Made by a program: the position numbers and the translations under genes. A stretch of 64,000 nt of DNA from an uncultured Solibacteraceae bacterium (GTDB lineage: Bacteria; Acidobacteriota; Vicinamibacteria; Vicinamibacterales; SCN-69-37): the NCBI GenBank assembly GCA_964471115.1, contig CAYYFE010000015.1, positions 13,818-77,817 on the forward strand. The letters are read 5' to 3'. This document shows, in pieces, positions 1,287 to 63,151 of this stretch. The notes below the pieces were generated by a model that was not told the origin of the DNA, ran no database searches, and saw only the letters and a program-made list of their open reading frames with translations. The stretch's first letter is position 1; each line of letters starts with the position of its first letter.

Positions 1287-1307
1287 CGGCAAGTGGCGGC
1301 AAGTAGC
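1268..1307 (+). repeat. tandem decamer array, 4 units (GGCRAGKRGC)
   Basis: Read directly: ggcaaggagc ggcgagtagc ggcaagtggc ggcaagtagc. It spans the tkt stop codon and the tkt/ggt spacer. Confidence 0.85.
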
Positions 1308-1361
1308 GCGGCCGGATCTGCCGGCCGCGATCGAACGCCAGTGCTCTTGTATCATCCCCGG

Positions 1362-4319
1362 ATGTTCCGAACGACCCGTGTCACCCGGGCGGCCGTCGTC
1401 CTGTCGGCCGTCTCCGCTTTCATCGTCACTGCGTTTGCCGCGCAAACGCCGGTCTCGCTGACGGGCATGCGCGATCCCGCGTTCGCCCCGGATGGCCGGC
1501 GGGTGGCCGTGTCCTGGTTCGAACAGTTATGGACGATGACGCCGGACGGGCGCGATCAGAAGCGCGTCGTCAGCGGCGGCGGCACATGGGTGAGTGAACG
1601 CGATCCTGCGTGGTCACCCGATGGCCGGCAGATCGCGTTTGCCGCGGACACGAACGGCGCGTTTGATGTGTACGTCGTGCCCTCCGGCGGCGGCACACCG
1701 CGCAAGGTGACGAGCCTGGCCGGCGACGAACGATGGCCGTCATGGACACGCGACGGACGGCTGTTGTTCTCGCACCGTCCGCCGGCCGGCGACTGGTCGT
1801 TGCATCTGGTGAGCGCCGACGGCAGCGGCGAACCGGCACGACTGACGACCGGCGACCACGCCGAGTGGTTCGGCCGCGTGTCGCCGGATGGCCGTCGCGT
1901 CGTGTATCTGTCGAACGCCGATCCCGACGGCGCTGACACGGCTGATGTGTTCGTGCGCGCGCTTGACGCAGCGGAGGCGGCACCGGTGCGCCTGACCCGC
2001 GGCGGCGGCCCGGAGCGCTGGCCCGCGTGGGCGCCCGACAGCGCGCGCGTCTCGTTTGCGGCCGCGCGCCAGGGTGTGGCCACAGGCGTGTGGGTCGTGG
2101 AGGCCGCGGCGCCGGCACCATCAGCCGCGCCTGGACGCGCGGGCGGTCCCGCGGGCCGGGGTGGTGGTGGCGCGGCGCAGCCGCTCGCGCAACTGGCATC
2201 GCGGCATGCGGGCCTCTCCGCGTGGTCACCGGACGGCGAGACGCTGCTCGTCGCCACCGAACCGGCACCGTCGACGCAGTACAACGGGAATCCGGTGCGC
2301 AACGATGACGATGCGGCGGCGGTGTTTGTCGCGGCCGAAGACCTGCAGGTGTGGCGCGTACCCGCGCCGCGCGCCATTGACGCCAACGCGCGCGCGATCG
2401 CCGCGCCGCCGCCGGGCCGCAGTCAGTGGGTGACGCAGTTCGATCGCACGTGGCAGACGCTCAAGTCGCTGTATTACCGGGAGGGGCCGTCGGCGGCGGC
2501 GTGGGACGCGTTGCGCGAGAAACACCGGCCGGCCGCGCTGGCCGCGACGTCGGCGAGCGACGTGGAAGATGTCATCGATGTGATGCTGGCCGAGCAGCCG
2601 CTGATGAAGCCGGCGGTCGAGAAGACGACCGGCGTGATTTCGTCGGGCCACCCGCTGGCGTCGGCCGCCGGCGCGCGAATCCTCGACATGGGCGGCAACA
2701 TCGTGGATGCGATCGTCGCCACGTCGTTTGCGCTCGGTGTCGTCGAGCCCGATGCGTCGGGCATCGGCGGTGACGGGCAGGCCATCCTTTTCCTGAAGGG
2801 GATGAGCGAGCCGGTCATCATCGAATACAAGGACATGACGCCCGCGCGGGCGACGTTCGACAACCCGAAGATCTTCGGCCCGAACGGACAGCGCACGGCG
2901 GGTGATGGACCGACGGTCGTGAACATTCCCGGTGTCGTCGCCGGGCTGGACCTGCTCTTCCAGAAGTACGGCAGCAAGAAGGTGACCTGGGAGCAGGTGC
3001 TGGCGCCCGCGATTGAACTGGCGGAGAACGGGTACATCCTCGACGAAGCGCTGCCGACGACCATCGCAATCGGCCGCGACCGGTTCGCCAAGTACCCGGA
3101 GGCCGCGAAGATCTATCTGCCTGGCGGGAAGGTGCCCAGACCCGGCGATCGGTTCATCAACAAGGACTATGCCGAAACGCTGAAGGTGCTGGCGAAGGAA
3201 GGCGGCCAGTCGTTCTACCGCGGCAGCATCGCGCGCCGGATTGCCGACGACATGGCAGCCAACGGCGGCATCATCTCGCTGGAGGATCTCGCGCAGTACC
3301 GCGCGATGGAGCGCAAGCCGTTGTCAGGCACCTTCCGCGGCCATCTGGTGTATTCGGTGGCGCCGCCTGTCTCGACCGGTCTCACGCTCATCGAGACCCT
3401 GCAGATTCTCGACAACTACACACCGAAGCCAGGCGCCACGGTGTTCAACGACCCCGAGTACCTGCATTACGCGATCGAAGCCTGGCGTGTGCGTGATGGC
3501 GGCGCGCAGATTGCGGATCCCGAGCGCTGGCCGATCAATCTCGGCAATCACCTCGAGCGCAATCACGCGCTCGATCGCTTCAAGCTCATCAATCCGTCGA
3601 AGGCCTGGGTCGCGCCGCAGGCCGCCGGCCGTGGCCGCGGCGCCGGCCCGCTGGACCCTGGGACCCTGGACCCTGGGACCCTGGACCCTGGACCCTCGGA
3701 CCCTGGACCCATTGAGATCCTTACAGGCACCACCTCCTTCGCCGGCGCGGACACCGACGGCAACATGATCGCCGTCACGCAGACGTTGTCCACCTGGGGC
3801 GGCAACTTCTACGTGTCGAAGGGGCTCGGCTTCCTCTACAACGATCACTTCCGCGGCGGACGCGGCACCGGGTACGGGTCGATGCTGCCGCTGCAGCGGC
3901 ATTCGTCGGTCAGTGTGCCGACGCTGCTGTTTGCGCCCAGCGACGTGGACCCCGGCCGGTACGGCATTCCCGGGTTCACGCCGCGGCTGGCCGTGGGCGC
4001 CGCGGGCAACGCGTGGATTCCCGCGTCGGTCTACAACATCATCCTCAACGTCGTCGACGGCGGGCTCGACGCGCAACGCGCCATCGAGGGGCCGCGCATG
4101 CTCATCGGCAACGGCCCCGGCGGCACGTCGCGTGTGCAGCTCGAGGATCGCATCCCCCGGGCGCTGCTCGAGAAACTGGAAGCCATGGGCCACACGTTCG
4201 CCAAGACCGGCCGGAAGGGCGAGGTGGTGCAGGGCTACGCGGCCGTCGCGCTGATCAATGCGTCGAAAGGAACGGTCGAGGGCGGATCCGAGCCTCGACG
4301 TACCCATGGCGCGCGTTGA
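1362..4319 (+). CDS. ggt: secreted TolB-like (PD40/WD40-like) beta-propeller fused to gamma-glutamyltranspeptidase
   Basis: Start re-picked at MFRTTRVTRAAVVLSAVSAFIVTAFAAQ (signal-peptide-like). The N-terminal third has repeated WSPDG/SPDG propeller motifs (AWSPDGRQIAFAAD, PSWTRDGRLLFS, VSPDGRRVVYLS, AWAPDSARVSFAA, AWSPDGETLLVA). The rest is GGT (SSGHPLASAAGARILDMGGNIVDA, SGIGGDGQAILF, putative nucleophile in LTGTTSFAGADTDGNMIAVTQTLSTWGG). Confidence 0.85.
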   Translation: MFRTTRVTRAAVVLSAVSAFIVTAFAAQTPVSLTGMRDPAFAPDGRRVAVSWFEQLWTMTPDGRDQKRVVSGGGTWVSERDPAWSPDGRQIAFAADTNGAFDVYVVPSGGGTPRKVTSLAGDERWPSWTRDGRLLFSHRPPAGDWSLHLVSADGSGEPARLTTGDHAEWFGRVSPDGRRVVYLSNADPDGADTADVFVRALDAAEAAPVRLTRGGGPERWPAWAPDSARVSFAAARQGVATGVWVVEAAAPAPSAAPGRAGGPAGRGGGGAAQPLAQLASRHAGLSAWSPDGETLLVATEPAPSTQYNGNPVRNDDDAAAVFVAAEDLQVWRVPAPRAIDANARAIAAPPPGRSQWVTQFDRTWQTLKSLYYREGPSAAAWDALREKHRPAALAATSASDVEDVIDVMLAEQPLMKPAVEKTTGVISSGHPLASAAGARILDMGGNIVDAIVATSFALGVVEPDASGIGGDGQAILFLKGMSEPVIIEYKDMTPARATFDNPKIFGPNGQRTAGDGPTVVNIPGVVAGLDLLFQKYGSKKVTWEQVLAPAIELAENGYILDEALPTTIAIGRDRFAKYPEAAKIYLPGGKVPRPGDRFINKDYAETLKVLAKEGGQSFYRGSIARRIADDMAANGGIISLEDLAQYRAMERKPLSGTFRGHLVYSVAPPVSTGLTLIETLQILDNYTPKPGATVFNDPEYLHYAIEAWRVRDGGAQIADPERWPINLGNHLERNHALDRFKLINPSKAWVAPQAAGRGRGAGPLDPGTLDPGTLDPGPSDPGPIEILTGTTSFAGADTDGNMIAVTQTLSTWGGNFYVSKGLGFLYNDHFRGGRGTGYGSMLPLQRHSSVSVPTLLFAPSDVDPGRYGIPGFTPRLAVGAAGNAWIPASVYNIILNVVDGGLDAQRAIEGPRMLIGNGPGGTSRVQLEDRIPRALLEKLEAMGHTFAKTGRKGEVVQGYAAVALINASKGTVEGGSEPRRTHGAR
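3653..3710 (+). repeat. tandem 7/8-mer array (GGACCCT / GGGACCCT), about 8 units, in frame inside ggt
   Basis: Read directly: ggaccctgggaccctggaccctgggaccctggaccctggaccctcggaccctggaccc. It is translated as GPLDPGTLDPGTLDPGPSDPGP. Confidence 0.9.
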
Positions 4320-7509: not shown

Positions 7510-7515
7510 GGTGTA

Positions 7516-7571
7516 AAGGATAAGGGATAAGGGATAAGGGATCAGGGATCAGGGACAAGGGACCAGGGACC
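7516..7571 (+). repeat. tandem heptamer array, 8 units (AGGGAYN)
   Basis: aaggata agggata agggata agggatc agggatc agggaca agggacc agggacc, starting 7 nt upstream of the nadE start codon. Confidence 0.9.
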
Positions 7572-7587
7572 ATTTGGAACCGCTCCC

Positions 7588-12992: not shown

Positions 12993-13882
12993 TTGTTCGT
13001 CCAGCGCGGCGCGGCCAGGCGGTAGCCGTCTTTCGACAGCCGGACCTCGAGGCGCTCGGGGGGAATCAGCGACTCCGGCCGGCCGTACGTCACGGCGAAC
13101 TGGCCGAGCAGTTGCGCGGCGATGTCGCCAAACCGCGCCTTGAGCGCCGACGGCGCGAAGATCATGGCGTTCTGGCCGCCCGACCGCTGCGTCACGTCGC
13201 CCAGCACGAGCGATCGTTCGCGCGTCTCGCTGACCATCGGGTTGTCGTTGAAGCTCTCCCGCGCGATGGTCCACAACGACGCGCGGGCGGCGGCCACGGC
13301 GGCCATGGCCTGGTCGTGCCGGCGGGTGCTGAACTCGGGGCCGTTTTCGTCGACGAACGCCACGATGGCGGCGCGCGCCGGTTTGCGGCGCGCCAGGGCG
13401 TTGGCGGCCTCGACCACGGCTTCGACGAAGTACGCGCCCGACCCGCTCACTGCAAAGAGGCGGTCGACCCCCCGGCCCAGCGCGACGGCCGACGTCGTGA
13501 AGTCGGCCTGAAGCGTCGGCCGTTCACCGAAGGTGTACAGCGCGATTTGGGACTCGGGGCTGGCTTTCCAGATGGCCGCGGCAAACGTGGAGATGGCCTC
13601 CCGCAGGTCCGGAGTGGCGCCCTGGGTCACATCGCTGGAATCAATGAGGACCGCAATTTCGAGCGGGGCCGTGGCCTTCTCGACCTTCAGGATTTCGCGG
13701 GCGTTGCCGTCCTCGCGGATGGTCAGTTCGCTGGCCAGGAGGGCCTCGGCGGGCCGGCCCTGCCGGTCGGTCACCGACACAAAAATCGTCTGGTCGCGCA
13801 GGGCGCGCTGGGCCTCGGGCAGGGCGGATCCGGCCAGCCAAACGGCCAGCGCCGCCACGAGCAGTCGGGGGAAGTGGCCCAT
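12989..13882 (-). CDS. secreted VWA-like protein, paralogue of 12060-12992
   Basis: Start re-picked at MGHFPRLLVAALAVWLAGSALPEAQ. The architecture matches its neighbour (IFVSVTDRQGRP..., VLIDSSDV, IVAFVDENG). Confidence 0.75.
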   Translation of the reverse strand: MGHFPRLLVAALAVWLAGSALPEAQRALRDQTIFVSVTDRQGRPAEALLASELTIREDGNAREILKVEKATAPLEIAVLIDSSDVTQGATPDLREAISTFAAAIWKASPESQIALYTFGERPTLQADFTTSAVALGRGVDRLFAVSGSGAYFVEAVVEAANALARRKPARAAIVAFVDENGPEFSTRRHDQAMAAVAAARASLWTIARESFNDNPMVSETRERSLVLGDVTQRSGGQNAMIFAPSALKARFGDIAAQLLGQFAVTYGRPESLIPPERLEVRLSKDGYRLAAPRWTNK

Positions 13883-25504: not shown

Positions 25505-27082
25505 ATGACCGCCACCACCTTCAGTCTCGCCCACCTGCTGGACCAGACCGCGCGACTCACCCCGTCACGCGAAGCCGTCGTGATGGGGCAGACGCGCCTG
25601 ACCTGGGCGCAGCTGGACGCCATGGTGAGTCAGGTCGCCAACGGCCTCCGCAGCCTGGGGCTGCGCCCCGGGGATCACATCGCGTTGTCGTGCCCCAACG
25701 TGCCGTATTTCCCGATGGCGTATTACGGCATCCTCCGGATGGGCGGCGTGGTGGTGCCCCTCAACGTGTTGCTCAAGCCGCGCGAGATTGCGTACCACCT
25801 CAAGGACGCGCAGGCCAGGGCGCTGCTGGTGTTTGAAGGCACGGCGGAACTGCCGATGGCGACGATGGCGCGGGCCGCCTGTGACGAGGCCGGCCTGTCG
25901 ATGCCGGTGATCGTGATGACCGCCAATCCCGCGGCGCCCAGTCCGGTCGACCGCGCGCTGTCGTTTGGCCAGCTCGTCCACGGACAAGCCCCGCGGTGCG
26001 CCACCCATCCGGCCGCACCCGGCGACACGGCGGTCATTCTCTACACCTCCGGGACGACCGGACAGCCCAAGGGCGCCGAACTGACGCACTTCAACATGGT
26101 GACCAACGCGCTGGTGTCGCGCGACATGTTGTCGCCGCTGGTCGACAGCCCGATCGCCGGCACCACCCGCCACCTGATCACGCTGCCGTTGTTCCACTCG
26201 ACCGGGCAGACCGCGCAGATGAACGCCAGCGTGGCTGGCGCCTCCACGATGGTACTGATGCCTCGGTTCGAGGCGGCGGGCGTGCTCAAGACGATGGTCG
26301 ACGAGCGGATTACGTGCTGGGTGGGCGTGCCCACGATGTACTGGGCGCTGCTTCAGCATGCGCGCCAGCACGGCGTCGACACGTCGGCCATCGCGGCGCG
26401 GCTGCGCGTCTGTGCGTCGGGCGGCGCGCCGATGCCGGTCGCCGTGTTGCAGGATTTCGAGCAGACCTTCGGGGTGCGCGTGCTCGAGGGGTACGGCCTG
26501 TCCGAGACGGCGCCGGTCGCCTGTTTCAACCAGGTGTTCCTGCCGTCCAAACCCGGCACCGTCGGCTTGCCCGTCCTCGGCTGCGAGGTGCGCGTCGTCA
26601 ACGATCAGGACGAACCGCTGCCCTCCGGTGAACGCGGCGAAATCGTCATCCGCGGCCACAACGTGATGAAGGGGTACTTCAACCGCCCGGCCGACACGGC
26701 CGAGGCGCTGCGGGGCGGGTGGTTCCACACCGGCGACATCGGCGTCATCGATGCCGATGGCTTCGTGTCGATTGTCGATCGCAAGAAGGACATGGTGCTG
26801 CGCGGCGGCATGAACGTGTATCCACGCGAGATCGAGGACGTGTTGATGACGCACCCGGCGGTGTCGCTGGCGGCCGTCATCGGCGTGCCCGACGAACGCC
26901 TGGGCGAAGAAGTGAAGGCGTATGTCGTGCTCAAGCCGGGCGCGACGCTGACGCCCGAGGCACTGGTGGACTGGAGCCGCGAACAACTGGCCGCCTACAA
27001 GTACCCCCGGATCGTCGAGATTCGGGAGTCGCTGCCGGTCGGGCCCACCGGCAAGGTGTTCAAGCGGGCGTTGCGCGAGTAG
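25505..27082 (+). CDS. long-chain fatty-acid--CoA ligase (AMP-dependent synthetase)
   Basis: AMP-binding motif ILYTSGTTGQPKGAELTH, with WFHTGDIG...DRKKDMVLRGGMNVYPREIE later. Confidence 0.9.
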   Translation: MTATTFSLAHLLDQTARLTPSREAVVMGQTRLTWAQLDAMVSQVANGLRSLGLRPGDHIALSCPNVPYFPMAYYGILRMGGVVVPLNVLLKPREIAYHLKDAQARALLVFEGTAELPMATMARAACDEAGLSMPVIVMTANPAAPSPVDRALSFGQLVHGQAPRCATHPAAPGDTAVILYTSGTTGQPKGAELTHFNMVTNALVSRDMLSPLVDSPIAGTTRHLITLPLFHSTGQTAQMNASVAGASTMVLMPRFEAAGVLKTMVDERITCWVGVPTMYWALLQHARQHGVDTSAIAARLRVCASGGAPMPVAVLQDFEQTFGVRVLEGYGLSETAPVACFNQVFLPSKPGTVGLPVLGCEVRVVNDQDEPLPSGERGEIVIRGHNVMKGYFNRPADTAEALRGGWFHTGDIGVIDADGFVSIVDRKKDMVLRGGMNVYPREIEDVLMTHPAVSLAAVIGVPDERLGEEVKAYVVLKPGATLTPEALVDWSREQLAAYKYPRIVEIRESLPVGPTGKVFKRALRE

Positions 27083-27153
27083 CGGCGAGTGGCGGCGAGT
27101 GGCGGCGAGTGGCGGTGAGTAGCGGTGAGTAGCGGCGAGTAGCGGGGAGTGGA
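27075..27153 (+). repeat. tandem decamer array, about 8 units (GCGAGTRGCG)
   Basis: gcgagtagcg gcgagtggcg gcgagtggcg gcgagtggcg gtgagtagcg gtgagtagcg gcgagtagcg gggagtgg. It spans the ligase stop codon and the whole spacer up to the HD gene. Confidence 0.9.
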
Positions 27154-36771: not shown

Positions 36772-37803
36772 TCAGGAGAGGTCGTAGGTGTAGCAGCCGG
36801 GCAGGACCAGCGCCCGGGTGACGCCGGGCACGCGGCTGAACGACAGACTCTCGGGCGCCTGGTTGCCCGTGCCGTCAAACGTGACGACCCGCCGCTTGTC
36901 GCCGTACTGGTCGTAGACGTACGTGAAGGGCGCGGCCAGGCTGACCCAGAGGTGGCCGTTCGGATCGAGCGCCGCCGTGCGAATCATCGGCGGGATCACC
37001 GGGTACGTCCCGTCCCCCGTCTTGCGCGTGGGCCACGTCGTCGGCAACGTCTGCAGGTACGGATCGAGATGGGATCCCTCGATGTGGCGCTCGAAGACCA
37101 GTTGCCCCGCGGCGTCGTACTTCTGGAACTTCGGCACGCCGGTCTGAAAGACAAACGTCACGCTGCCGTCACGACCGCGCAACGCCAGGCCCACGTTGAG
37201 CGCCATGTGCACGTTGCGGTCGTGTTCGTGGCCCGTCGCTCGCAGCCGCCCGATCTGCCGGATCGGATTGCCGTTGAGGTCCAGCTCGGTGATCAGCGCG
37301 CCGTTGTCCGGCTCGTTGAGCAGGAATCCCGATCCGGTGAACTGCAGCGCGCCCACGCCGTTGAGGATGACCGCGCCCATGATGAGCCGGGGCGCCACCA
37401 CGCCCGGCCGCAGAAACGCGCGAATCTGCGCGCCGGCCGCGGTGAACACCTGGATTCGCTCCTGACGGAAGGGCGCATCCGAAATCGCATACGCGCCATC
37501 GTCGGCCAGGCTGAGGGCGCCCGGCTGCAGCGTCTCGCCCTTTTCGAGCCCGGCCTGCACCAGCCGCGTGAGACGTGTCCCGGTGCGGTCCACCGCGTAC
37601 AACGTGTGCGCGCGACGGTCGAGCAGCAGGTACCGCCCGGAGGCGTCCTGCACGAATCCGATGGGATGAATCAGCGAATCACAGACCTGCTGCGACAGGC
37701 CGCCGGTGGGGCGCAGGACTTCGACGGGCAGCTGCGATGCCGTGAGTGTGGTCGACAGGAAAAGTGCGGCGCCCCACAGACCATGGCGCCCTACGCAAGT
37801 CAC
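36772..37803 (-). CDS. secreted hypothetical protein, possibly beta-propeller (NHL-like)
   Basis: The ORF is followed 3 nt downstream by the DUF885 gene. Repetitive beta-rich sequence. Start uncertain: GTG 37803 lies at the edge of the decamer array. Confidence 0.45.
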   Translation of the reverse strand: MTCVGRHGLWGAALFLSTTLTASQLPVEVLRPTGGLSQQVCDSLIHPIGFVQDASGRYLLLDRRAHTLYAVDRTGTRLTRLVQAGLEKGETLQPGALSLADDGAYAISDAPFRQERIQVFTAAGAQIRAFLRPGVVAPRLIMGAVILNGVGALQFTGSGFLLNEPDNGALITELDLNGNPIRQIGRLRATGHEHDRNVHMALNVGLALRGRDGSVTFVFQTGVPKFQKYDAAGQLVFERHIEGSHLDPYLQTLPTTWPTRKTGDGTYPVIPPMIRTAALDPNGHLWVSLAAPFTYVYDQYGDKRRVVTFDGTGNQAPESLSFSRVPGVTRALVLPGCYTYDLS

Positions 37804-37877
37804 TCGCCGCCACCCGCCGCTACTCGCCGCCACTTGCCGCCACTTGCCGCCACTCGCCGCCACTCGCCGCTACTCGC
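37801..37877 (-). repeat. tandem decamer array, about 7.7 units, same unit as 27075-27153 but on the minus strand
   Basis: Plus strand reads cactcgccgc cacccgccgc tactcgccgc cacttgccgc cacttgccgc cactcgccgc cactcgccgc tactcgc. It fills the spacer between two minus-strand genes. Confidence 0.9.
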
Positions 37878-44318: not shown

Positions 44319-45301
44319 GCCGGCCCCTGAACCCTGGACCCTCGGACCCTGGACCCTGCGTACGCTTCAAACGTCATTCCCTCGGCGCCCAGTTCCTTCG
44401 TGGCGTACGTCAGGAAGGCGCCCAGCCGTTCGTAGAAGGCGTCCAGCTCGGCCTCGGTGCGGTTGTACGGACTGCCGCCGACGATGGCCTCCGAGGAATG
44501 GAAGAGCAGGTTGAGAATCGGGACGCCGGCGTCGACCAGCTGCCGTCCCAGCGCGCACATGTCCTGCGTCGAGCTGTACGACGGGCGCAGCCAGCGGACC
44601 TGCGCGACCCCCGACAGACGCAGCAGGCGCTTGGTGGTGTAGTTGAACGGCGCGCGCGCGTAGGCGTGCGCCAGCCACGCCGGGACGCGCCGGTTGAGTG
44701 CGGCCGAAATCGGCAGCTCCAGCACCTGGCTCGAGCCCGGCCGCGTCGCGTTGTCGTAGGCGAGGAAGTACGGCGTCAACGGGGCCTCGACGAAGTCGGG
44801 CCCGCCCTTGTGCGCCTCGTAGAACAGGGGAGCCACGCTCGAGTCGACCAGGTAGCCGGCGCGTTCGAGTGACGAAACGTGGGAGGCCGAAAATCCGAAG
44901 CGGCCCGAACGATACGACACCGGCCGCACGCCGACCGCGGCGGTGATCGCGTCGGTCAACGACGCCAGCTGGGCGTCGAATTGATCGAGGGGCAGCTGCA
45001 GGGCGTACGGGTGCCGGCGGATGTCCGCCTCGGTGCACGGCGGCGTTTCCCACGCGTGATGATGCGCGCCGATTTCACAGTCGCCCGCCTCGTGCAGCCG
45101 GCGCAGCACCTCGGCCGAGCGGGGATCGGTGGCGACCGGATGGGTGATGACGTACGTCGGCCGGACGCCGTGACGCCGGAAGAACTCGTGCAGCCGATCG
45201 AGCGCGTAGATGTTCTCGAAGCGCTGGTGCAGGCGCGCCTGGGCGTCCCACTGGTTGTCGCCTTCGGTGTCGATTGCGACCAGCAGGGCGGGCCCGGTCA
45301 T
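44315..45301 (-). CDS. polysaccharide deacetylase-like protein (WalW-type)
   Basis: LLVAIDTEGDNQWD...VRPTYVITHPVA...EIGAHHHAWETPP resembles the divalent-metal deacetylase fold. ATGA overlaps at both ends. Confidence 0.7.
   Translation of the reverse strand: MTGPALLVAIDTEGDNQWDAQARLHQRFENIYALDRLHEFFRRHGVRPTYVITHPVATDPRSAEVLRRLHEAGDCEIGAHHHAWETPPCTEADIRRHPYALQLPLDQFDAQLASLTDAITAAVGVRPVSYRSGRFGFSASHVSSLERAGYLVDSSVAPLFYEAHKGGPDFVEAPLTPYFLAYDNATRPGSSQVLELPISAALNRRVPAWLAHAYARAPFNYTTKRLLRLSGVAQVRWLRPSYSSTQDMCALGRQLVDAGVPILNLLFHSSEAIVGGSPYNRTEAELDAFYERLGAFLTYATKELGAEGMTFEAYAGSRVRGSRVQGPA
44329..44357 (+). repeat. tandem 7/8-mer array (GGACCCT type), 4 units
   Basis: gaaccct ggaccct cggaccct ggaccct. 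It encodes the last residues (GSRVRGSRVQGPA) of the minus-strand deacetylase gene and sits just upstream of the GT4 start. Confidence 0.85.
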
Positions 45302-46343: not shown

Positions 46344-47204
46344 CTATTCCAGAACGTATTCCATATTACTGATGAAGATGTCGCGCGTGGCTTCGCTGTC
46401 GCGCAGCCAGCGCCCCAGCGGGCCGGGCAACCGGCGCACCGTCGCCGTCGAGTGCAGTTCCTCGCGGACGATGCGCAGGCCGGCGTCGGCGATCTGCCGG
46501 CGCAGGCGCGTCACCGTGACCAGTTCAAGCAGGTCGTCTTCCTTCCAGATGCCATTGCGCGCGTCCCGGATGAACGAGTTCTCGTGGGCGGGCTCCTTCA
46601 GCGTCCACGGCGCGTACCGCGCCAGCAGCCGGAACGTGCGGAACGCGATCCAGCGGCCCGTGATCAGGTGCAGCGGGATCTGAATCTTCAGGCGCGGCAG
46701 GTGCGCGCCGGCAAACGACAGGTACGGCGCGGTCGACAGCAGGCACCGCGCGCCGGGAGCCATCACGCGCCGGATCTCCCGCAGGTACAGCGGTGCGTCG
46801 GCGACGTGTTCGATCACGGCGTGTGACAGGACGAGATCAAACGACGCGTCGGCAAACGGCAGATACATGCCGTCGGCCTGCAGGAAGTGCAGGTGCGCCA
46901 GACCGCGTTCGCGCGCCAGCCGGACGCCGGCATCGCCGAACCGGTTGATGGGATCGATGCCCACGACGAACCGCGCGTGTTCGGCCAGTGACAGCGGCAT
47001 GCCGCCGCCGCCGCACCCGGCATCCAGCACGCGCCCTTCCACCTGCACGCCGGCGCGGTCGAGGAAGGCCAGCACCTTGGCGGACCGGTAGTACTCGAAA
47101 AGCGCGTAGTCGTACTCGGACCGGAACCGGCGGTCCGCATGCTGCTTGATCAGGGCGTCATTTATCTCGCGCACGCGGGTCGGGTCCGTCGGGAAACTTG
47201 TCAA
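46344..47204 (-). CDS. class I SAM-dependent methyltransferase
   Basis: Motif I VLDAGCGGGGM. Start uncertain (TTG 47204 or GTG 47174); it overlaps the upstream gene's 3' end. Confidence 0.8.
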   Translation of the reverse strand: MTSFPTDPTRVREINDALIKQHADRRFRSEYDYALFEYYRSAKVLAFLDRAGVQVEGRVLDAGCGGGGMPLSLAEHARFVVGIDPINRFGDAGVRLARERGLAHLHFLQADGMYLPFADASFDLVLSHAVIEHVADAPLYLREIRRVMAPGARCLLSTAPYLSFAGAHLPRLKIQIPLHLITGRWIAFRTFRLLARYAPWTLKEPAHENSFIRDARNGIWKEDDLLELVTVTRLRRQIADAGLRIVREELHSTATVRRLPGPLGRWLRDSEATRDIFISNMEYVLE

Positions 47205-48990
47205 TGAGTGCAGCCCGGTCGCGGCCCGGCGTCTCCTGGACGTCGAACTCCATCACGAGTCGTCGCTGCGGGTAGTGCGCGAGCACGTCGAGGATGACGT
47301 CACCCTCGTAGCCTGGCTCGGGCCGTCCGTCGGCTTCCGTATAGGAGAGTATATAGCGCGCATCGTCGCGCGAGAGCCGGTCCGCGTAGTTGCCGAACCC
47401 CCGGCCCACGAAGACCGGGCGGATGCGATTCTCGAGCGCGAGGCCGTTGGCCAGCTTGCCGTGCACGAGGGTGCCGTCGGGCAACACTGCCCCCAGCGCC
47501 CGCGACGCGTCGACGTTGAGGTACGTGCGGGACGCGGCCCACCGGCCGAACAGCGTCAGGTCGGTCGCGACGGTCGCCACCACGACGAAGGCCAGCGCCA
47601 CGGGCGAGGGACGCCAGCCGGCCAGCCAGTCCGCGTAGCGCGCCCGGTACCACCAGGCCGCCAGCCCGGCCGCGACCGCAACCGCCGCCGAGACCCGGAC
47701 GGTCTGCTTCAACTCGCCCGCCAGGACGTCGTCGAGCCAGACCAGGCGCAGCAGACTGCCGGCGGCCAGATACGCCAGGGGCACCGCCGCGACGGCCACC
47801 ACCACGCCCCCCCATCGATCCATCGATCCATCGATCCATCGATCCATTGATCCATCGATCCATCGATCCATGGTTGTCATGCCGGCCAGTGCGATGAGCG
47901 CCGGCACGAACATCACGTAGCGACGTTCGTTGCCCGCGTCATGCACGATCAGTTCGAGCAGCCCGATGGCCAGCCAGAGCACGGCCAGCCGGGCCGCGGG
48001 CGGCGCGGCGGGCCAGCGTCGCACCACCGCGAGTGTCGTCACGGCCGCGACCAGCAGCACCAGCCACATGCGCGAGAACACGCCATGCACGACGGGCAGC
48101 CAGCTGGCGCGCTGGACGAAGTCGGCAAGGCCGTAGCTCGGCTTGCGCGTGACCGTCATCTCCCAGTTGTAGAACTGGAATTCGGTCCAGTACGGCACGA
48201 CGAACATCGCCAGCACGACGGCGGTGGCGAGTACGAGACCCGCGAGGGTGGCGAGGTGGCGAGATGGCGAGGTGGCGAGGTGGCCGGATGGCGAGGCGGC
48301 GAGGTGGCGGGATGAGCACCACCATGCGGTGGCCATCTCCAGTACGAGCGCGGCGATGAAAAACGCCGCGGCGGCCTTCGTGAAAAACGCGGCCACCGCC
48401 GCCGCGCCGGCGATGACGCCGAGCCAGGGGCGGCGCGCGCTGCCGGCGTACGCGGCCCAGCTCACCGTCATCAACGCCGTCATGGTGGACTCCATCAGCG
48501 CCGCGCGGTTCCACATGACGAACGTGAAACTGGTGGCCAGCAGCACGCCGCCCAGCAGCGCGGCCCGGCGCCCAGCCACGGCCAGCAGGCCGGCCATCAG
48601 CGCCGCCACCGCCACGACACCGGAGATCGCCGGCACCAGTCGCGCCTGCCACGTGCCGACGCCGAAGGCCTCAAACGACGCCCACTCGAGCGCGGTGAAC
48701 ACCGGCGCGATGAACACGGGGTTCCAGGCGTCGGTCCGCCACTCGCCCCACAACGCGGCGTTGCGCGCATTGTGCGTCCACGCACCTTCGTCGTGCCAGA
48801 CGATCCCGGTGTGCCCCACCGGAGGATCCGCCGTCAGCCAGACGCCGCGCAGGGCGATGGCGAGCAGCAGCAGGCCGGCGATGGCCGCCAGTGTCCGCAC
48901 GGACGAGGCTCCGCACTCCGCACTGCGCTCCGCGCACTCCGCACTTCGCACTCCGCACTGCGCACTGCGCACTCCGCACTGCGCACTCAT
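47158..48990 (-). CDS. GT-C fold, ArnT/PMT_2-like membrane glycosyltransferase carrying three in-frame repeat arrays
   Basis: Start fixed by an ATGA overlap with the upstream gene (48987-48990). First-loop acidic motif IVWHDEGAWTHNARNAALWGEW. At least 10 TM segments. Soluble C-terminal domain. Confidence 0.75.
   Translation of the reverse strand: MSAQCGVRSAQCGVRSAECAERSAECGASSVRTLAAIAGLLLLAIALRGVWLTADPPVGHTGIVWHDEGAWTHNARNAALWGEWRTDAWNPVFIAPVFTALEWASFEAFGVGTWQARLVPAISGVVAVAALMAGLLAVAGRRAALLGGVLLATSFTFVMWNRAALMESTMTALMTVSWAAYAGSARRPWLGVIAGAAAVAAFFTKAAAAFFIAALVLEMATAWWCSSRHLAASPSGHLATSPSRHLATLAGLVLATAVVLAMFVVPYWTEFQFYNWEMTVTRKPSYGLADFVQRASWLPVVHGVFSRMWLVLLVAAVTTLAVVRRWPAAPPAARLAVLWLAIGLLELIVHDAGNERRYVMFVPALIALAGMTTMDRWIDGSMDRWIDGSMDRWGGVVVAVAAVPLAYLAAGSLLRLVWLDDVLAGELKQTVRVSAAVAVAAGLAAWWYRARYADWLAGWRPSPVALAFVVVATVATDLTLFGRWAASRTYLNVDASRALGAVLPDGTLVHGKLANGLALENRIRPVFVGRGFGNYADRLSRDDARYILSYTEADGRPEPGYEGDVILDVLAHYPQRRLVMEFDVQETPGRDRAALIDKFPDGPDPRARDK
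47812..47872 (+). repeat. tandem octamer array (CCATCGAT), about 7.5 units, in frame inside the GT-C gene
   Basis: ccatcgat x3, ccattgat, ccatcgat x2, ccatgg. Translated on the minus strand as MDRWIDGSMDRWIDGSMDRW. Contains six GATC and five ATCGAT sites. Confidence 0.9.
48247..48311 (+). repeat. tandem octamer array (GGTGGCGA type), about 8 units, in frame inside the GT-C gene
   Basis: ggtggcga ggtggcga gatggcga ggtggcga ggtggccg gatggcga ggcggcga ggtggcgg. Translated on the minus strand as SRHLAASPSGHLATSPSRHLAT. Confidence 0.9.
48911..48987 (+). repeat. tandem heptamer array (SSGCACT), 11 units, forming the first about 26 codons of the GT-C gene
   Basis: ccgcact ccgcact gcgctcc gcgcact ccgcact tcgcact ccgcact gcgcact gcgcact ccgcact gcgcact. 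Minus-strand translation MSAQCGVRSAQCGVRSAECAERSAECG. Confidence 0.9.
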
Positions 48991-50588
48991 GGCTTTCGCC
49001 TCCAGACTTCGAAGCGATCGAGGTCGGCCTCGCGCGTGTAGTGCGCCGTGAGCCACGTCTCGAGGAGCGGCGTGTCGTGGAAGTAGTCGGCCGAATGGCG
49101 ATCGGGACCAGCCCACGAGTCGCGTTGCAGGGCCACGAGCGCGGGGGTGTGCTGTTGCAGCTCCGCCAGCAGGCCCGCGGGGCCGTACCCGGGGCGGTCA
49201 ACCTCGAAGTCGCTCACGATGGGCTGGCTCCAGTGAAAACGCGACGCACTGCGGCGCCCGGCCAGCACCGGGACGCCGGGCGAGAAGCCGAACACGTAGA
49301 TGGTGTCGGTCGGGGCCGTGGTGGCGCGCACCAGACGCACCAGCTCGTCGATGGCGCCGGCCACGAACTTGTCCTGCGGCCGGCCTCCGAAGTCCGCGAG
49401 ATACCGCGCGCGATCGACCGGGCCGGTCAGCGCCTGCCAGTCCAGTCGGGTGCGGCTCAGGAGGTCGTCGTAGCTGGTGGCGCGTTCGGCGCCCACCAGC
49501 ACGAGGGCGCCGGCCACCCACGGGAGGATCCGGTGCCGCTGGCCGAGTCGACGGCCCAGCAGGACAAGGCCGACGCCCGCCGCCAGCGCGAGCGCGGGCC
49601 AGGCCTGCACGAAATACTGCGGCAGGTGCCGCGCGCCGTTGATGAGGATGGACAGCCACGCGCCGGCCAGCCACGCGGCGGCGACGGCGGCGCTTCGCCG
49701 GGCCGGGCGGTCCGCCGTCCACACGGTGGCCAGTGACGCCAGCACGCCCAGGCCGCCGAGGAACCAGAGCGCGTCATTGCGCGCGCGTTCGACCGGAAAC
49801 TGCGCCGCGTACCGCAGCACGCCCAGCAGTCCGTCGTAGGTGTCGCCGGCGTACCGCGCGTTGTAGGTGATTGTCGCCAAGTAGAGATCGGATAACGATC
49901 CGGTCAGGGCCAAGAGCGCGATCGGCGCCAGCACCATCACCAGTCCCGCGGCCGACACGGTCGCCAGCTCCCGCACCCATGCGCGCGGTTCGAAGGTCAT
50001 CCCCCGTGGCCAGCACGCCAGCGCGACGGCGGCGGTGACGGCGTACGCGGCCGCGTTGTATTTCAGCCAGAACGCCGCGCCCAGCAGGACGCCGATGCCC
50101 AGCAGGTGTCCACGCCGGCGATCGTGGGTGGCAGCCAGGGCGAGGGCGCCGGTGATCGCGAGTGCGATGAACGTCTCGCACTGCCCGCGTACGAAGACGC
50201 CGCCCAGCCGCTGGGTCAGGGCCGGATTGCCGAAGAACAGATACACGGCGGCCGCGGCGACGCCGGTCGCCTCGTCGAGCCGGCGGCGTCCGATGATGAC
50301 CAGCAACCAGGCCACGGCGCCCGCCGCCGCCATGTCGGCCGCCGCGACGACCGACTGGTGCGGCCAGACCGCCCACAACACGCCGTAGATGACATGAATG
50401 CCCGGCGGCTTCTGATCCCACGCGCCGGCGTACGGCGCGTCGCCCGCCATCAGACGCTGGCCGGCGTAGGCGTACAAGCCCTGGTCGGAGGCCATGGGCT
50501 GCGCCAGCGACGGAACCCGCAGGAGCCAGAGCGCCGCCAGCAGCACACACCACGCCAATCGCTGGGTTGACGGCCCCCGTGCGGACAC
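48987..50588 (-). CDS. GT-C fold, ArnT/PMT_2-like membrane glycosyltransferase
   Basis: MASDQGLYAYAGQRLMAGDAPYAGAWDQKPPGIHVIYG first-loop region, then about 12 TM segments and a C-terminal soluble domain. Confidence 0.75.
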   Translation of the reverse strand: MSARGPSTQRLAWCVLLAALWLLRVPSLAQPMASDQGLYAYAGQRLMAGDAPYAGAWDQKPPGIHVIYGVLWAVWPHQSVVAAADMAAAGAVAWLLVIIGRRRLDEATGVAAAAVYLFFGNPALTQRLGGVFVRGQCETFIALAITGALALAATHDRRRGHLLGIGVLLGAAFWLKYNAAAYAVTAAVALACWPRGMTFEPRAWVRELATVSAAGLVMVLAPIALLALTGSLSDLYLATITYNARYAGDTYDGLLGVLRYAAQFPVERARNDALWFLGGLGVLASLATVWTADRPARRSAAVAAAWLAGAWLSILINGARHLPQYFVQAWPALALAAGVGLVLLGRRLGQRHRILPWVAGALVLVGAERATSYDDLLSRTRLDWQALTGPVDRARYLADFGGRPQDKFVAGAIDELVRLVRATTAPTDTIYVFGFSPGVPVLAGRRSASRFHWSQPIVSDFEVDRPGYGPAGLLAELQQHTPALVALQRDSWAGPDRHSADYFHDTPLLETWLTAHYTREADLDRFEVWRRKP

Positions 50589-63081: not shown

Positions 63082-63137
63082 CCGCACTGCGCACTGCGCA
63101 CTCCGCACTGGGCACTGCGCACTGGGCACTCCGCACT
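63082..63137 (+). repeat. tandem heptamer array (SSGCACT), 8 units
   Basis: ccgcact gcgcact gcgcact ccgcact gggcact gcgcact gggcact ccgcact. It lies in the spacer between two minus-strand genes, 15 nt past the radical SAM stop codon. Confidence 0.9.
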
Positions 63138-63151
63138 GCTTATGACGCTCG

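Follow-up and report, generated by a model that had tools for sequence, protein, structure and literature searches.

The classical contingency loci of Neisseria, Haemophilus and Campylobacter (lgtA/lgtC/lgtG, the lic genes and poly-G tracts) carry, inside the open reading frame (ORF) of a surface-glycan transferase, a tract of repeats with a unit length indivisible by 3, so that gain or loss of one unit frameshifts the gene (PMC2651432, PMC5084427). These tracts are pure, are usually built of 1-5-nt units, occur one per gene and often lie near its 5' end, and OFF alleles are common among sequenced strains. Repeats of other kinds are dispersed through genomes: the Xanthomonas GGGAATC and Nostoc GGGGA(C/T)T short tandemly repeated repetitive sequences are simple sequence repeats (SSRs) of the heptamer class (PMC4692102), and in Burkholderia mallei and B. 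pseudomallei SSR indels arise on passage, mostly in non-coding sequence, with coding changes altering protein length or frame (PMC1574311, PMC1853098). Here we examine a gene for an ArnT-like GT-C membrane glycosyltransferase that holds three tandem arrays of 7- or 8-nt units, in a 64,000-nt stretch of DNA (positions 13,818 to 77,817 of contig CAYYFE010000015.1, assembly GCA_964471115.1; the whole stretch is called the window below) from an uncultured Solibacteraceae bacterium that GTDB places in the Vicinamibacterales. We give a probability of about 0.65 to the reading that these arrays are slippage-generated repeats of a lineage-wide class, which survive just at permissive, frame-preserving sites and there give in-frame variation in length and sequence.

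The locus shares with the classical contingency genes a tract of non-multiple-of-3 units within a surface-glycan transferase ORF, where one unit more or less shifts the frame, but it differs from them in having three tracts, two of them degenerate, in belonging to a class of repeats that is not specific to surface genes, and in the lack of OFF alleles among 160 orthologues. With the Xanthomonas and Nostoc repeats, those of this lineage share units of ~7 nt in few to tens of copies, the occurrence of one unit at many loci, and a preference for positions between co-directional ORFs near stops and starts, with fewer arrays inside coding regions (PMC4692102); in GGGTCCA, the commonest Vicinamibacterales family, a G3 tract likewise recurs every 7 nt. 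They differ in their host phylum (Acidobacteriota), in the coexistence of 7-10-nt unit lengths and in their many unit families, and the GT-C gene differs further in that its three arrays are without G3 tracts and lie inside an ORF. The proteobacterial Burkholderia genomes are likewise high in GC and carry thousands of SSRs in and between genes, and B. pseudomallei occurs in soil (PMC1574311, PMC1853098), whereas Vicinamibacterales units are mainly 7-10 nt long and are known here from assemblies. An earlier note on this DNA had presented repeat-mediated switching as new for an environmental, high-GC lineage; the Burkholderia (PMC1574311) and Xanthomonas/Nostoc (PMC4692102) precedents weaken that novelty, and the locus is a tidy real example, not a new mechanism.

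The gene and its arrays, the latter as delimited by Tandem Repeats Finder (TRF), are the following.

47158-48990, minus strand: ArnT-like GT-C (PMT_2 / GT39) membrane glycosyltransferase gene, a single intact ORF of 610 amino acids (aa) from its ATG.
48909-48988, minus strand: array 1, heptamer GTGCGSA in 11.4 copies with 83% matches, also seen as period 21 in 3.8 copies.
48242-48314, minus strand: array 2, octamer CCAYCTCG in 8.4 copies with 81% matches, degenerate, also seen as period 24 in 3.0 copies.
47812-47871, minus strand: array 3, octamer GGATCGAT in 7.5 copies with 96% matches.

The three arrays described in the earlier note are real, with its coordinates 2-5 nt off those of TRF, and they greatly exceed chance: patterns of two or three units gave 15, 4 and 6 matches, against 0.00, 0.14 and 0.09 expected from dinucleotide shuffles. 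Array 3 is nearly pure, yet just 4 perfect units stand in succession. The periods of 21 or 24 nt appear because the unit lengths of 7 and 8 nt share no factor with 3, and the encoded peptides are MSA(QCGVRSA)n for array 1, (HLATSPSR)n for array 2 and (MDRWIDGS)n for array 3. All three lie, as had been claimed, within one open minus-strand frame. That the frame stays open through them is true but uninformative inside the arrays, where it is trivial because the three units yield no stop codon, in whichever sense frame they are read; what informs is the flanking sequence, in which the conserved protein goes on in the same frame at both sides of arrays 2 and 3. Simulated changes of one or two units, up or down, led to truncation or frameshift, and changes of three units altered the length by 7 or 8 aa alone, in agreement with the arithmetic put forward at the outset.

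Orthologues were compared at 160 loci, 80 taken from genomes of GTDB species and 80 from JGI metagenomes, 1.16 Mb in total besides the window, all of them consensus assemblies, in which minority variants are hidden. None of the 160 orthologues was matched by tblastn in more than one frame, and the internal stops flagged in 25 orthologue translations all proved to precede the true start or to stand at the natural C-terminus. Among these 160, of which ~12 bear arrays, not one allele was OFF. Across 13 pairs of close orthologues (12 at 86-99% nucleotide identity, plus L006/L008), every credible internal indel was a multiple of 3 (3, 6, 12, 15, 21 or 30 nt), the exceptions being two 5'-end alignment gaps that face a truncated locus (L096/L117), and all indels but one fell at residues 226-244 or 371-393. 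L006 and L008 differ by 15 nt inside a heptamer array; L081 and L082, a same-species pair with 99.5% identity from different samples, have equal array length.

The arrays look like tolerated by-products of a repeat habit of the lineage, and no evidence was found for their acting as on/off switches. The orthologue comparison that the earlier note had called for showed arrays in part of the orthologues and length variation in frame, and of the frameshifted alleles after which it had asked, none credible was seen. Its proposal of ON/OFF switching is accordingly not supported, on three points: none of the 160 orthologues is frameshifted, the indels between close relatives keep the frame, and such arrays are general to the window and the clade. 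Nor do three independent switches in one gene fit, since three independently drifting tracts would all be in frame at once in ~1/27 of cases, and an intact gene is nonetheless seen everywhere that arrays are present.

Several truncated orthologues were tried as evidence for switching and rejected. Four of them (L164, L166, L167 and L168) have 2-4 frame changes per gene, lie beside split neighbour genes and stand on long-read-style contigs, and L163 carries an extra nonsense codon besides its frameshift; we read the truncated orthologues examined as products of assembly error or of decay rather than of switching. Fragment searches aimed at truncated alleles of the window gene itself returned no 100%-identical fragment. 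The four contigs (ENA ERZ250395xx, Flye-style) show apparent long-read indel error of a sort that would inflate pseudogene counts in metagenome-assembled genomes (MAGs).

The assignment of the predicted product as an ArnT-like GT-C glycosyltransferase held up and is a fair label: the protein matches the Pfam profile PF13231 PMT_2 above its cut-off (28.1 bits against 26.1, E 2.7e-6), and a Foldseek search of the PDB with an AlphaFold2 model (pTM 0.85, from an alignment of 23 sequences) gave ArnT 5f15/5ezm as the best match (E 6e-9, probability 1.00), with further matches to the oligosaccharyltransferase subunit STT3, Emb, AftA, ALG9 and PMT. Its 1185 homologues, with a top identity of 73%, are all Acidobacteriota, and Vicinamibacterales where named; they carry PF02366 and PF13231, and GT39 / ArnT-like is their source annotation. 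Like ArnT and other PMT_2 (GT83/GT39) proteins, the protein has a multi-helix membrane domain, a WHDEGAW motif in the loop after the first transmembrane (TM) helix and a C-terminal soluble domain, but the kinship is distant (hmmsearch E 0.0015 to 5ezm, TM-score ~0.5). The motif (W65 H66 D67 E68 G69 A70 W71) is invariant in 23/23 sequences and follows TM1 immediately; by analogy with ArnT topology, from which the side of the membrane is taken, it would be the conserved acidic motif of the first extracytoplasmic loop.

Array 1 encodes residues ~2-28 of an N-terminal tail, array 2 residues ~226-250 and array 3 residues 374-393, the latter two in loops between TM helices that we call loop A and loop B. 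In the AlphaFold2 model, non-helical linkers join long helices at roughly residues 233-241 (loop A) and 374-387 (loop B), with low predicted confidence (pLDDT) at 231-240 and 371-390, which agrees with the loop placement proposed for both octamer arrays. Tail and both loops are predicted to face the cytoplasm, from a helix count that starts from an N-in ArnT-like topology with its acidic motif in the first periplasmic loop, and from the richness of the loops in Arg and Lys in homologues.

The position of array 1 turns on which start codon is used, and two candidates lie at its ends.

48988-48990, minus strand: ATG start that overlaps the stop (TGA) of the GT-C gene upstream, as ATGA, with GGAGG at 48999-49003, 8 nt upstream.
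48898-48900, minus strand: in-frame GTG after array 1, with GGAG at 48909-48912 (in the last repeat unit) 8 nt upstream; a start here would give 580 aa.

As the earlier note had assumed, array 1 is very probably translated, because the ATGA-overlapping ATG with its GGAGG matches the start used by orthologues. NTGA starts are common 37-45 codons ahead of WHDEG in orthologues, and the junction peptide ..LEA(A/K)AM(S/T).. is kept among them. The distance from start to WHDEG is 37-45 codons in orthologues (mode 38) and 64 codons, that is 38 + 26, in the window gene, so that array 1 appears, from this comparison, as a 26-codon in-frame insertion right behind the ancestral start codon. The GTG at 48900 had first been suspected as the true start, with array 1 as an intergenic spacer, because most arrays of the window are junctional; this was largely rejected in view of the GGAGG Shine-Dalgarno sequence, the conserved junction peptide and the 38 + 26 codons. 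A possible, speculative role for that GTG is as a fallback start independent of the length of array 1.

Both loops are repeat hot spots in the family. Loop A (query aa 224-250) holds arrays of 7-, 8- or 9-nt units in 11 orthologous loci, with units as diverse as CCACCAAC, CATCTCCC, GGGTCCA, GAACCCCA, GGCGGCGT and CACCTCTGC, and repeat-derived peptides of homologues in loops A and B include PTNPPTHQ..., VLQVLQ..., FRHFRH..., MEDGGWRMGDGGW and IDRSTDRKIDRS. Spans from anchor to anchor range from 46 to 88 aa for loop A and from 37 to 63 aa for loop B among orthologues. In the nearest relatives (L003, L083, L004, L001 and L002) the units are C-rich and akin to CCAYCTCG of the window; judged by this likeness, their loop A arrays and that of the window may share ancestry. 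To our knowledge, nothing in the Burkholderia reports corresponds to this clustering of arrays within two loops of a single protein family.

Some further features of these loci were seen in passing. L001 and L002, the nearest genome relatives at 71-73% identity, are labelled Acidimicrobiia and are probably mis-binned or mislabelled contigs. Loop A of L006 (4536-4629) and L008 (4536-4644) contains an inverted heptamer pair, (GGGTCCA)n and then (TGGACCC)n, in frame, which is a potential long hairpin within a coding region. Very large arrays stand in loop A of L167 (3113-3375, 39 nt x 6.8, 263 nt) and L166 (3124-3224, 8 nt x 12.8), and directly after the stop of the GT-C gene in L014 (5644-5845, the same as L098 4644-4845; 8 nt x 23.8, 202 nt). 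The unit of array 3, GGATCGAT, is made of the overlapping palindromes GATC, TCGA and ATCGAT; it forms arrays elsewhere too, because two unrelated metagenome proteins (P0131 and P0132) consist of MDRWIDGS-type repeats.

Across the 161 sequences, arrays of at least 3.5 copies had mostly periods of 7 (38 arrays), 8 (26), 9 (18) or 10 nt (7), and periods 3, 6 and 12 were almost absent. With coding sequences (CDS) taken from a crude ORF call based on GC content at third codon positions (GC3), the coding share is at least ~71% of the sequence, and 69 of 94 arrays lie outside CDS interiors: 50 are intergenic, 19 stand at CDS ends and 25 are CDS-internal. Sixteen of these 25 internal arrays sit in the GT-C gene. 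The commonest unit family is GGGTCCA, with 12 arrays at 8 loci.

The window mirrors this pattern. It holds 10 arrays with 7-10-nt units, five of which (1268, 7514, 27075, 37801 and 63083) fill or straddle co-directional gene junctions, and one, at 44325, encodes the C-terminal tail of a gene. Unit families recur, GTGCGSA at 2 loci, GCGAGTRGCG at 3 and GGACCCT at 2, as in the following arrays.

63083-63139, minus strand: intergenic array at a junction, with the heptamer family of array 1 (GTGCGSA).
3651-3710, plus strand: in-frame heptamer array of the GGACCCT family, inside an unrelated ORF (1287-4319).
27075-27150, plus strand: decamer array filling a co-directional junction, of the GCGAGTRGCG family found also at 1268-1308 and 37801-37877.

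The arrays at 63083-63139 and 48909-48988, 14 kb apart, have a 31-mer in common and a like alternation of C and G; this argues that GTGCGSA units spread or are favoured and were not born independently from local sequence. The array at 3651-3710 encodes GPLDPGTLDPGT... / GPLDPGTLDPGTLDPGPSDPGP, in an ORF that, read from its translation alone, looks like a TolB-like / gamma-glutamyltranspeptidase-like fusion; the array lies just upstream of a 'TGTTSF' motif resembling an autoprocessing site. Each of the three GCGAGTRGCG arrays stands exactly at a co-directional junction, and the unit, which contains TAG, provides the stop codon of the upstream gene in 2/3 cases. A heptamer array at 7514-7572 (TAAGGGA/TCAGGGA/CCAGGGA) occupies part of a 120-nt spacer between two minus-strand genes; with G3 every 7 nt it could form G-quadruplexes, and it resembles the Xanthomonas GGGAATC class.

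The gene's surroundings form an envelope-glycan cluster, with a second GT-C gene, a methyltransferase, a GNAT protein, a deacetylase-like protein, GT4, a MurJ-like flippase and a rhomboid protein, beside which an AlgX-like SGNH protein and an MBOAT protein are encoded divergently.

48987-50588, minus strand: upstream paralogous GT-C gene, with a weak PMT_2 match, translationally coupled to the gene under study and without short-unit arrays.

Searches for the same organism in other data gave no same-species copy in GTDB genomes (best identity 73%) or JGI metagenomes (67%), and no other record has the exact 610-aa protein; an exact look-up of the upstream paralogue likewise found no match. A look-up of the exact protein of a neighbouring gene led to three Logan contigs of the same organism (L161, L162 and L165), from runs ERR3494947, ERR3494959 and ERR3494961, that are 100% identical to the window.

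These contigs belong to a group of observations that weigh against arrays that are simply tolerated. All three begin at window position 47837, with their other ends scattered, and their starts consist of 24 nt of array 3 and the full G7 run beside it.

47807-47813, minus strand: G7 homopolymer directly after array 3.

Array 3 of the window allele contains no repeated 31- or 30-mer, and for that reason a clonal graph of k=31 should not branch at 47837; the branch may imply that the last G varies (by a G6/G7 indel or a single-nucleotide polymorphism), or that another locus has the repeat and six G's. This common break beside array 3 is the sole, weak hint of heterogeneity. Array 3, moreover, is probably recent and still prone to slippage, given that 96% of its positions match. 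Three arrays in one 1.8-kb gene, set against 10 per 64 kb, have a Poisson probability (for at least three) of ~0.003, and by a rough count internal arrays are ~4-fold denser (per kb) in the GT-C gene of orthologues than in neighbouring genes, an enrichment that fits permissiveness but also selection for mutability. Finally, the 160 loci are best-scoring tblastn hits, which biases the set against frameshifted or split alleles.

Such observations would suit a contingency locus, in which one or more arrays, with array 3 or the start-proximal array 1 as the likeliest, would slip frequently by single units and so reversibly switch the transferase and an envelope glycan, for example as a bet-hedge against phage. 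The arrays, built of units indivisible by 3, stand within an ORF of an envelope-glycan operon (GT4, MurJ-like flippase, deacetylase), a change of one unit abolishes the product in simulation, array 3 has a purity of 96%, arrays are enriched in the gene, contigs of three samples break at one base by array 3 and G7 where no k-mer is repeated, and an N-terminal SSR position marks phase-variable genes (PMC3315296). We nevertheless consider switching unlikely. None of the 160 orthologues is OFF, the ~12 array-bearing ones included; relatives differ solely by multiples of 3, L081 and L082 agree in array length, arrays 1 and 2 are degenerate (83% and 81% matches), and three independent switches would leave the gene ON 1/27 of the time. 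Arrays of this kind also occur at junctions and in an unrelated enzyme gene, the split orthologues are found on noisy long-read contigs with several frameshifts or with an added nonsense codon (L163), and the GTG and GGAG after array 1 could free expression from its length. It would be a long shot to suppose that Vicinamibacterales, abundant Acidobacteriota of soil, maintain contingency tracts, with population heterogeneity at array 3/G7 switching a surface glycan on and off, for instance under pressure from phage, or, more broadly, that an uncharacterised mechanism seeds unit families at junctions and loops clade-wide.

A selected function of the repeats, whether as linkers of tunable length in loops and tail or through action at the DNA or RNA level, such as structure near the translation start, seems doubtful. 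In its favour, loop A bears arrays in numerous species, and the nearest clade has C-rich units that are related; array 1 stands in a translation-initiation region, within a pair of genes whose translation is coupled; families of units come back at junctions between genes; and the related Xanthomonas heptamer repeats are transcribed and form G-quadruplexes in vitro (PMC4692102). Units and peptides in the same loop are, however, wholly different between species, many orthologues have no array, and as RNA the array 1 region folds no more stably than shuffles do (z = -1.14); none of the gene's three units, GTGCGSA, CCAYCTCG and GGATCGAT, has a G3 or C3 run, and G3-bearing units occur elsewhere in the window (GGGTCCA and TAAGGGA). 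That the arrays are an artefact of assembly, or the gene a decaying pseudogene split at the arrays, as the earlier note had allowed, is very improbable. Short-read assemblers do struggle at such arrays, the Logan contigs end in array 3 and the exact 610-aa protein is recorded nowhere else, but the reading frame runs unbroken, more than a hundred invariant residues being conserved at both sides of each array, the AlphaFold2 model is confident, the independent Logan contigs agree at 100% identity with the proximal 24 nt of array 3 and with 3.4 kb of flanking sequence, and analogous arrays are present in orthologues of many independent assemblies.

The reading we favour, slippage-generated repeats retained where the protein and its frame permit, agrees with the general finding that an SSR in coding sequence is tolerated if the structure of the protein leaves room for it (PMC3315296), and with the precedent of the SSR-rich, high-GC Burkholderia genomes (PMC1574311). 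Vicinamibacterales genomes would generate and spread tandem repeats of 7-10-nt units, presumably by replication slippage, and these would persist where harm is small, at gene junctions and in structurally permissive segments within genes. In the GT-C transferase the permissive sites would be the N-terminal tail and the two putatively cytoplasmic loops, away from the periplasmic catalytic face, and purifying selection on an important gene would clear every out-of-frame length. The outcome would be the insertion of in-frame, low-complexity and probably neutral peptides, together with in-frame length variation among relatives.

Under this ordinary reading the value of the finding is mainly descriptive, and lies in an unreported abundance of 7-10-nt tandem repeats in a major soil lineage; no paper linking Vicinamibacter or Acidobacteriota with tandem repeats was found in the library searched, the one match of an Acidobacteria-plus-SSR survey being unspecific. 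Such repeats break short-read assemblies and create spurious split genes in long-read assemblies, and the two permissive loops that they mark in a conserved GT-C family can be put to use in annotation, in MAG quality control and in protein engineering of loops. If switching were true after all, repeat-mediated phase variation of surface glycans would be extended from host-adapted pathogens to free-living soil bacteria, which would be of real ecological interest.

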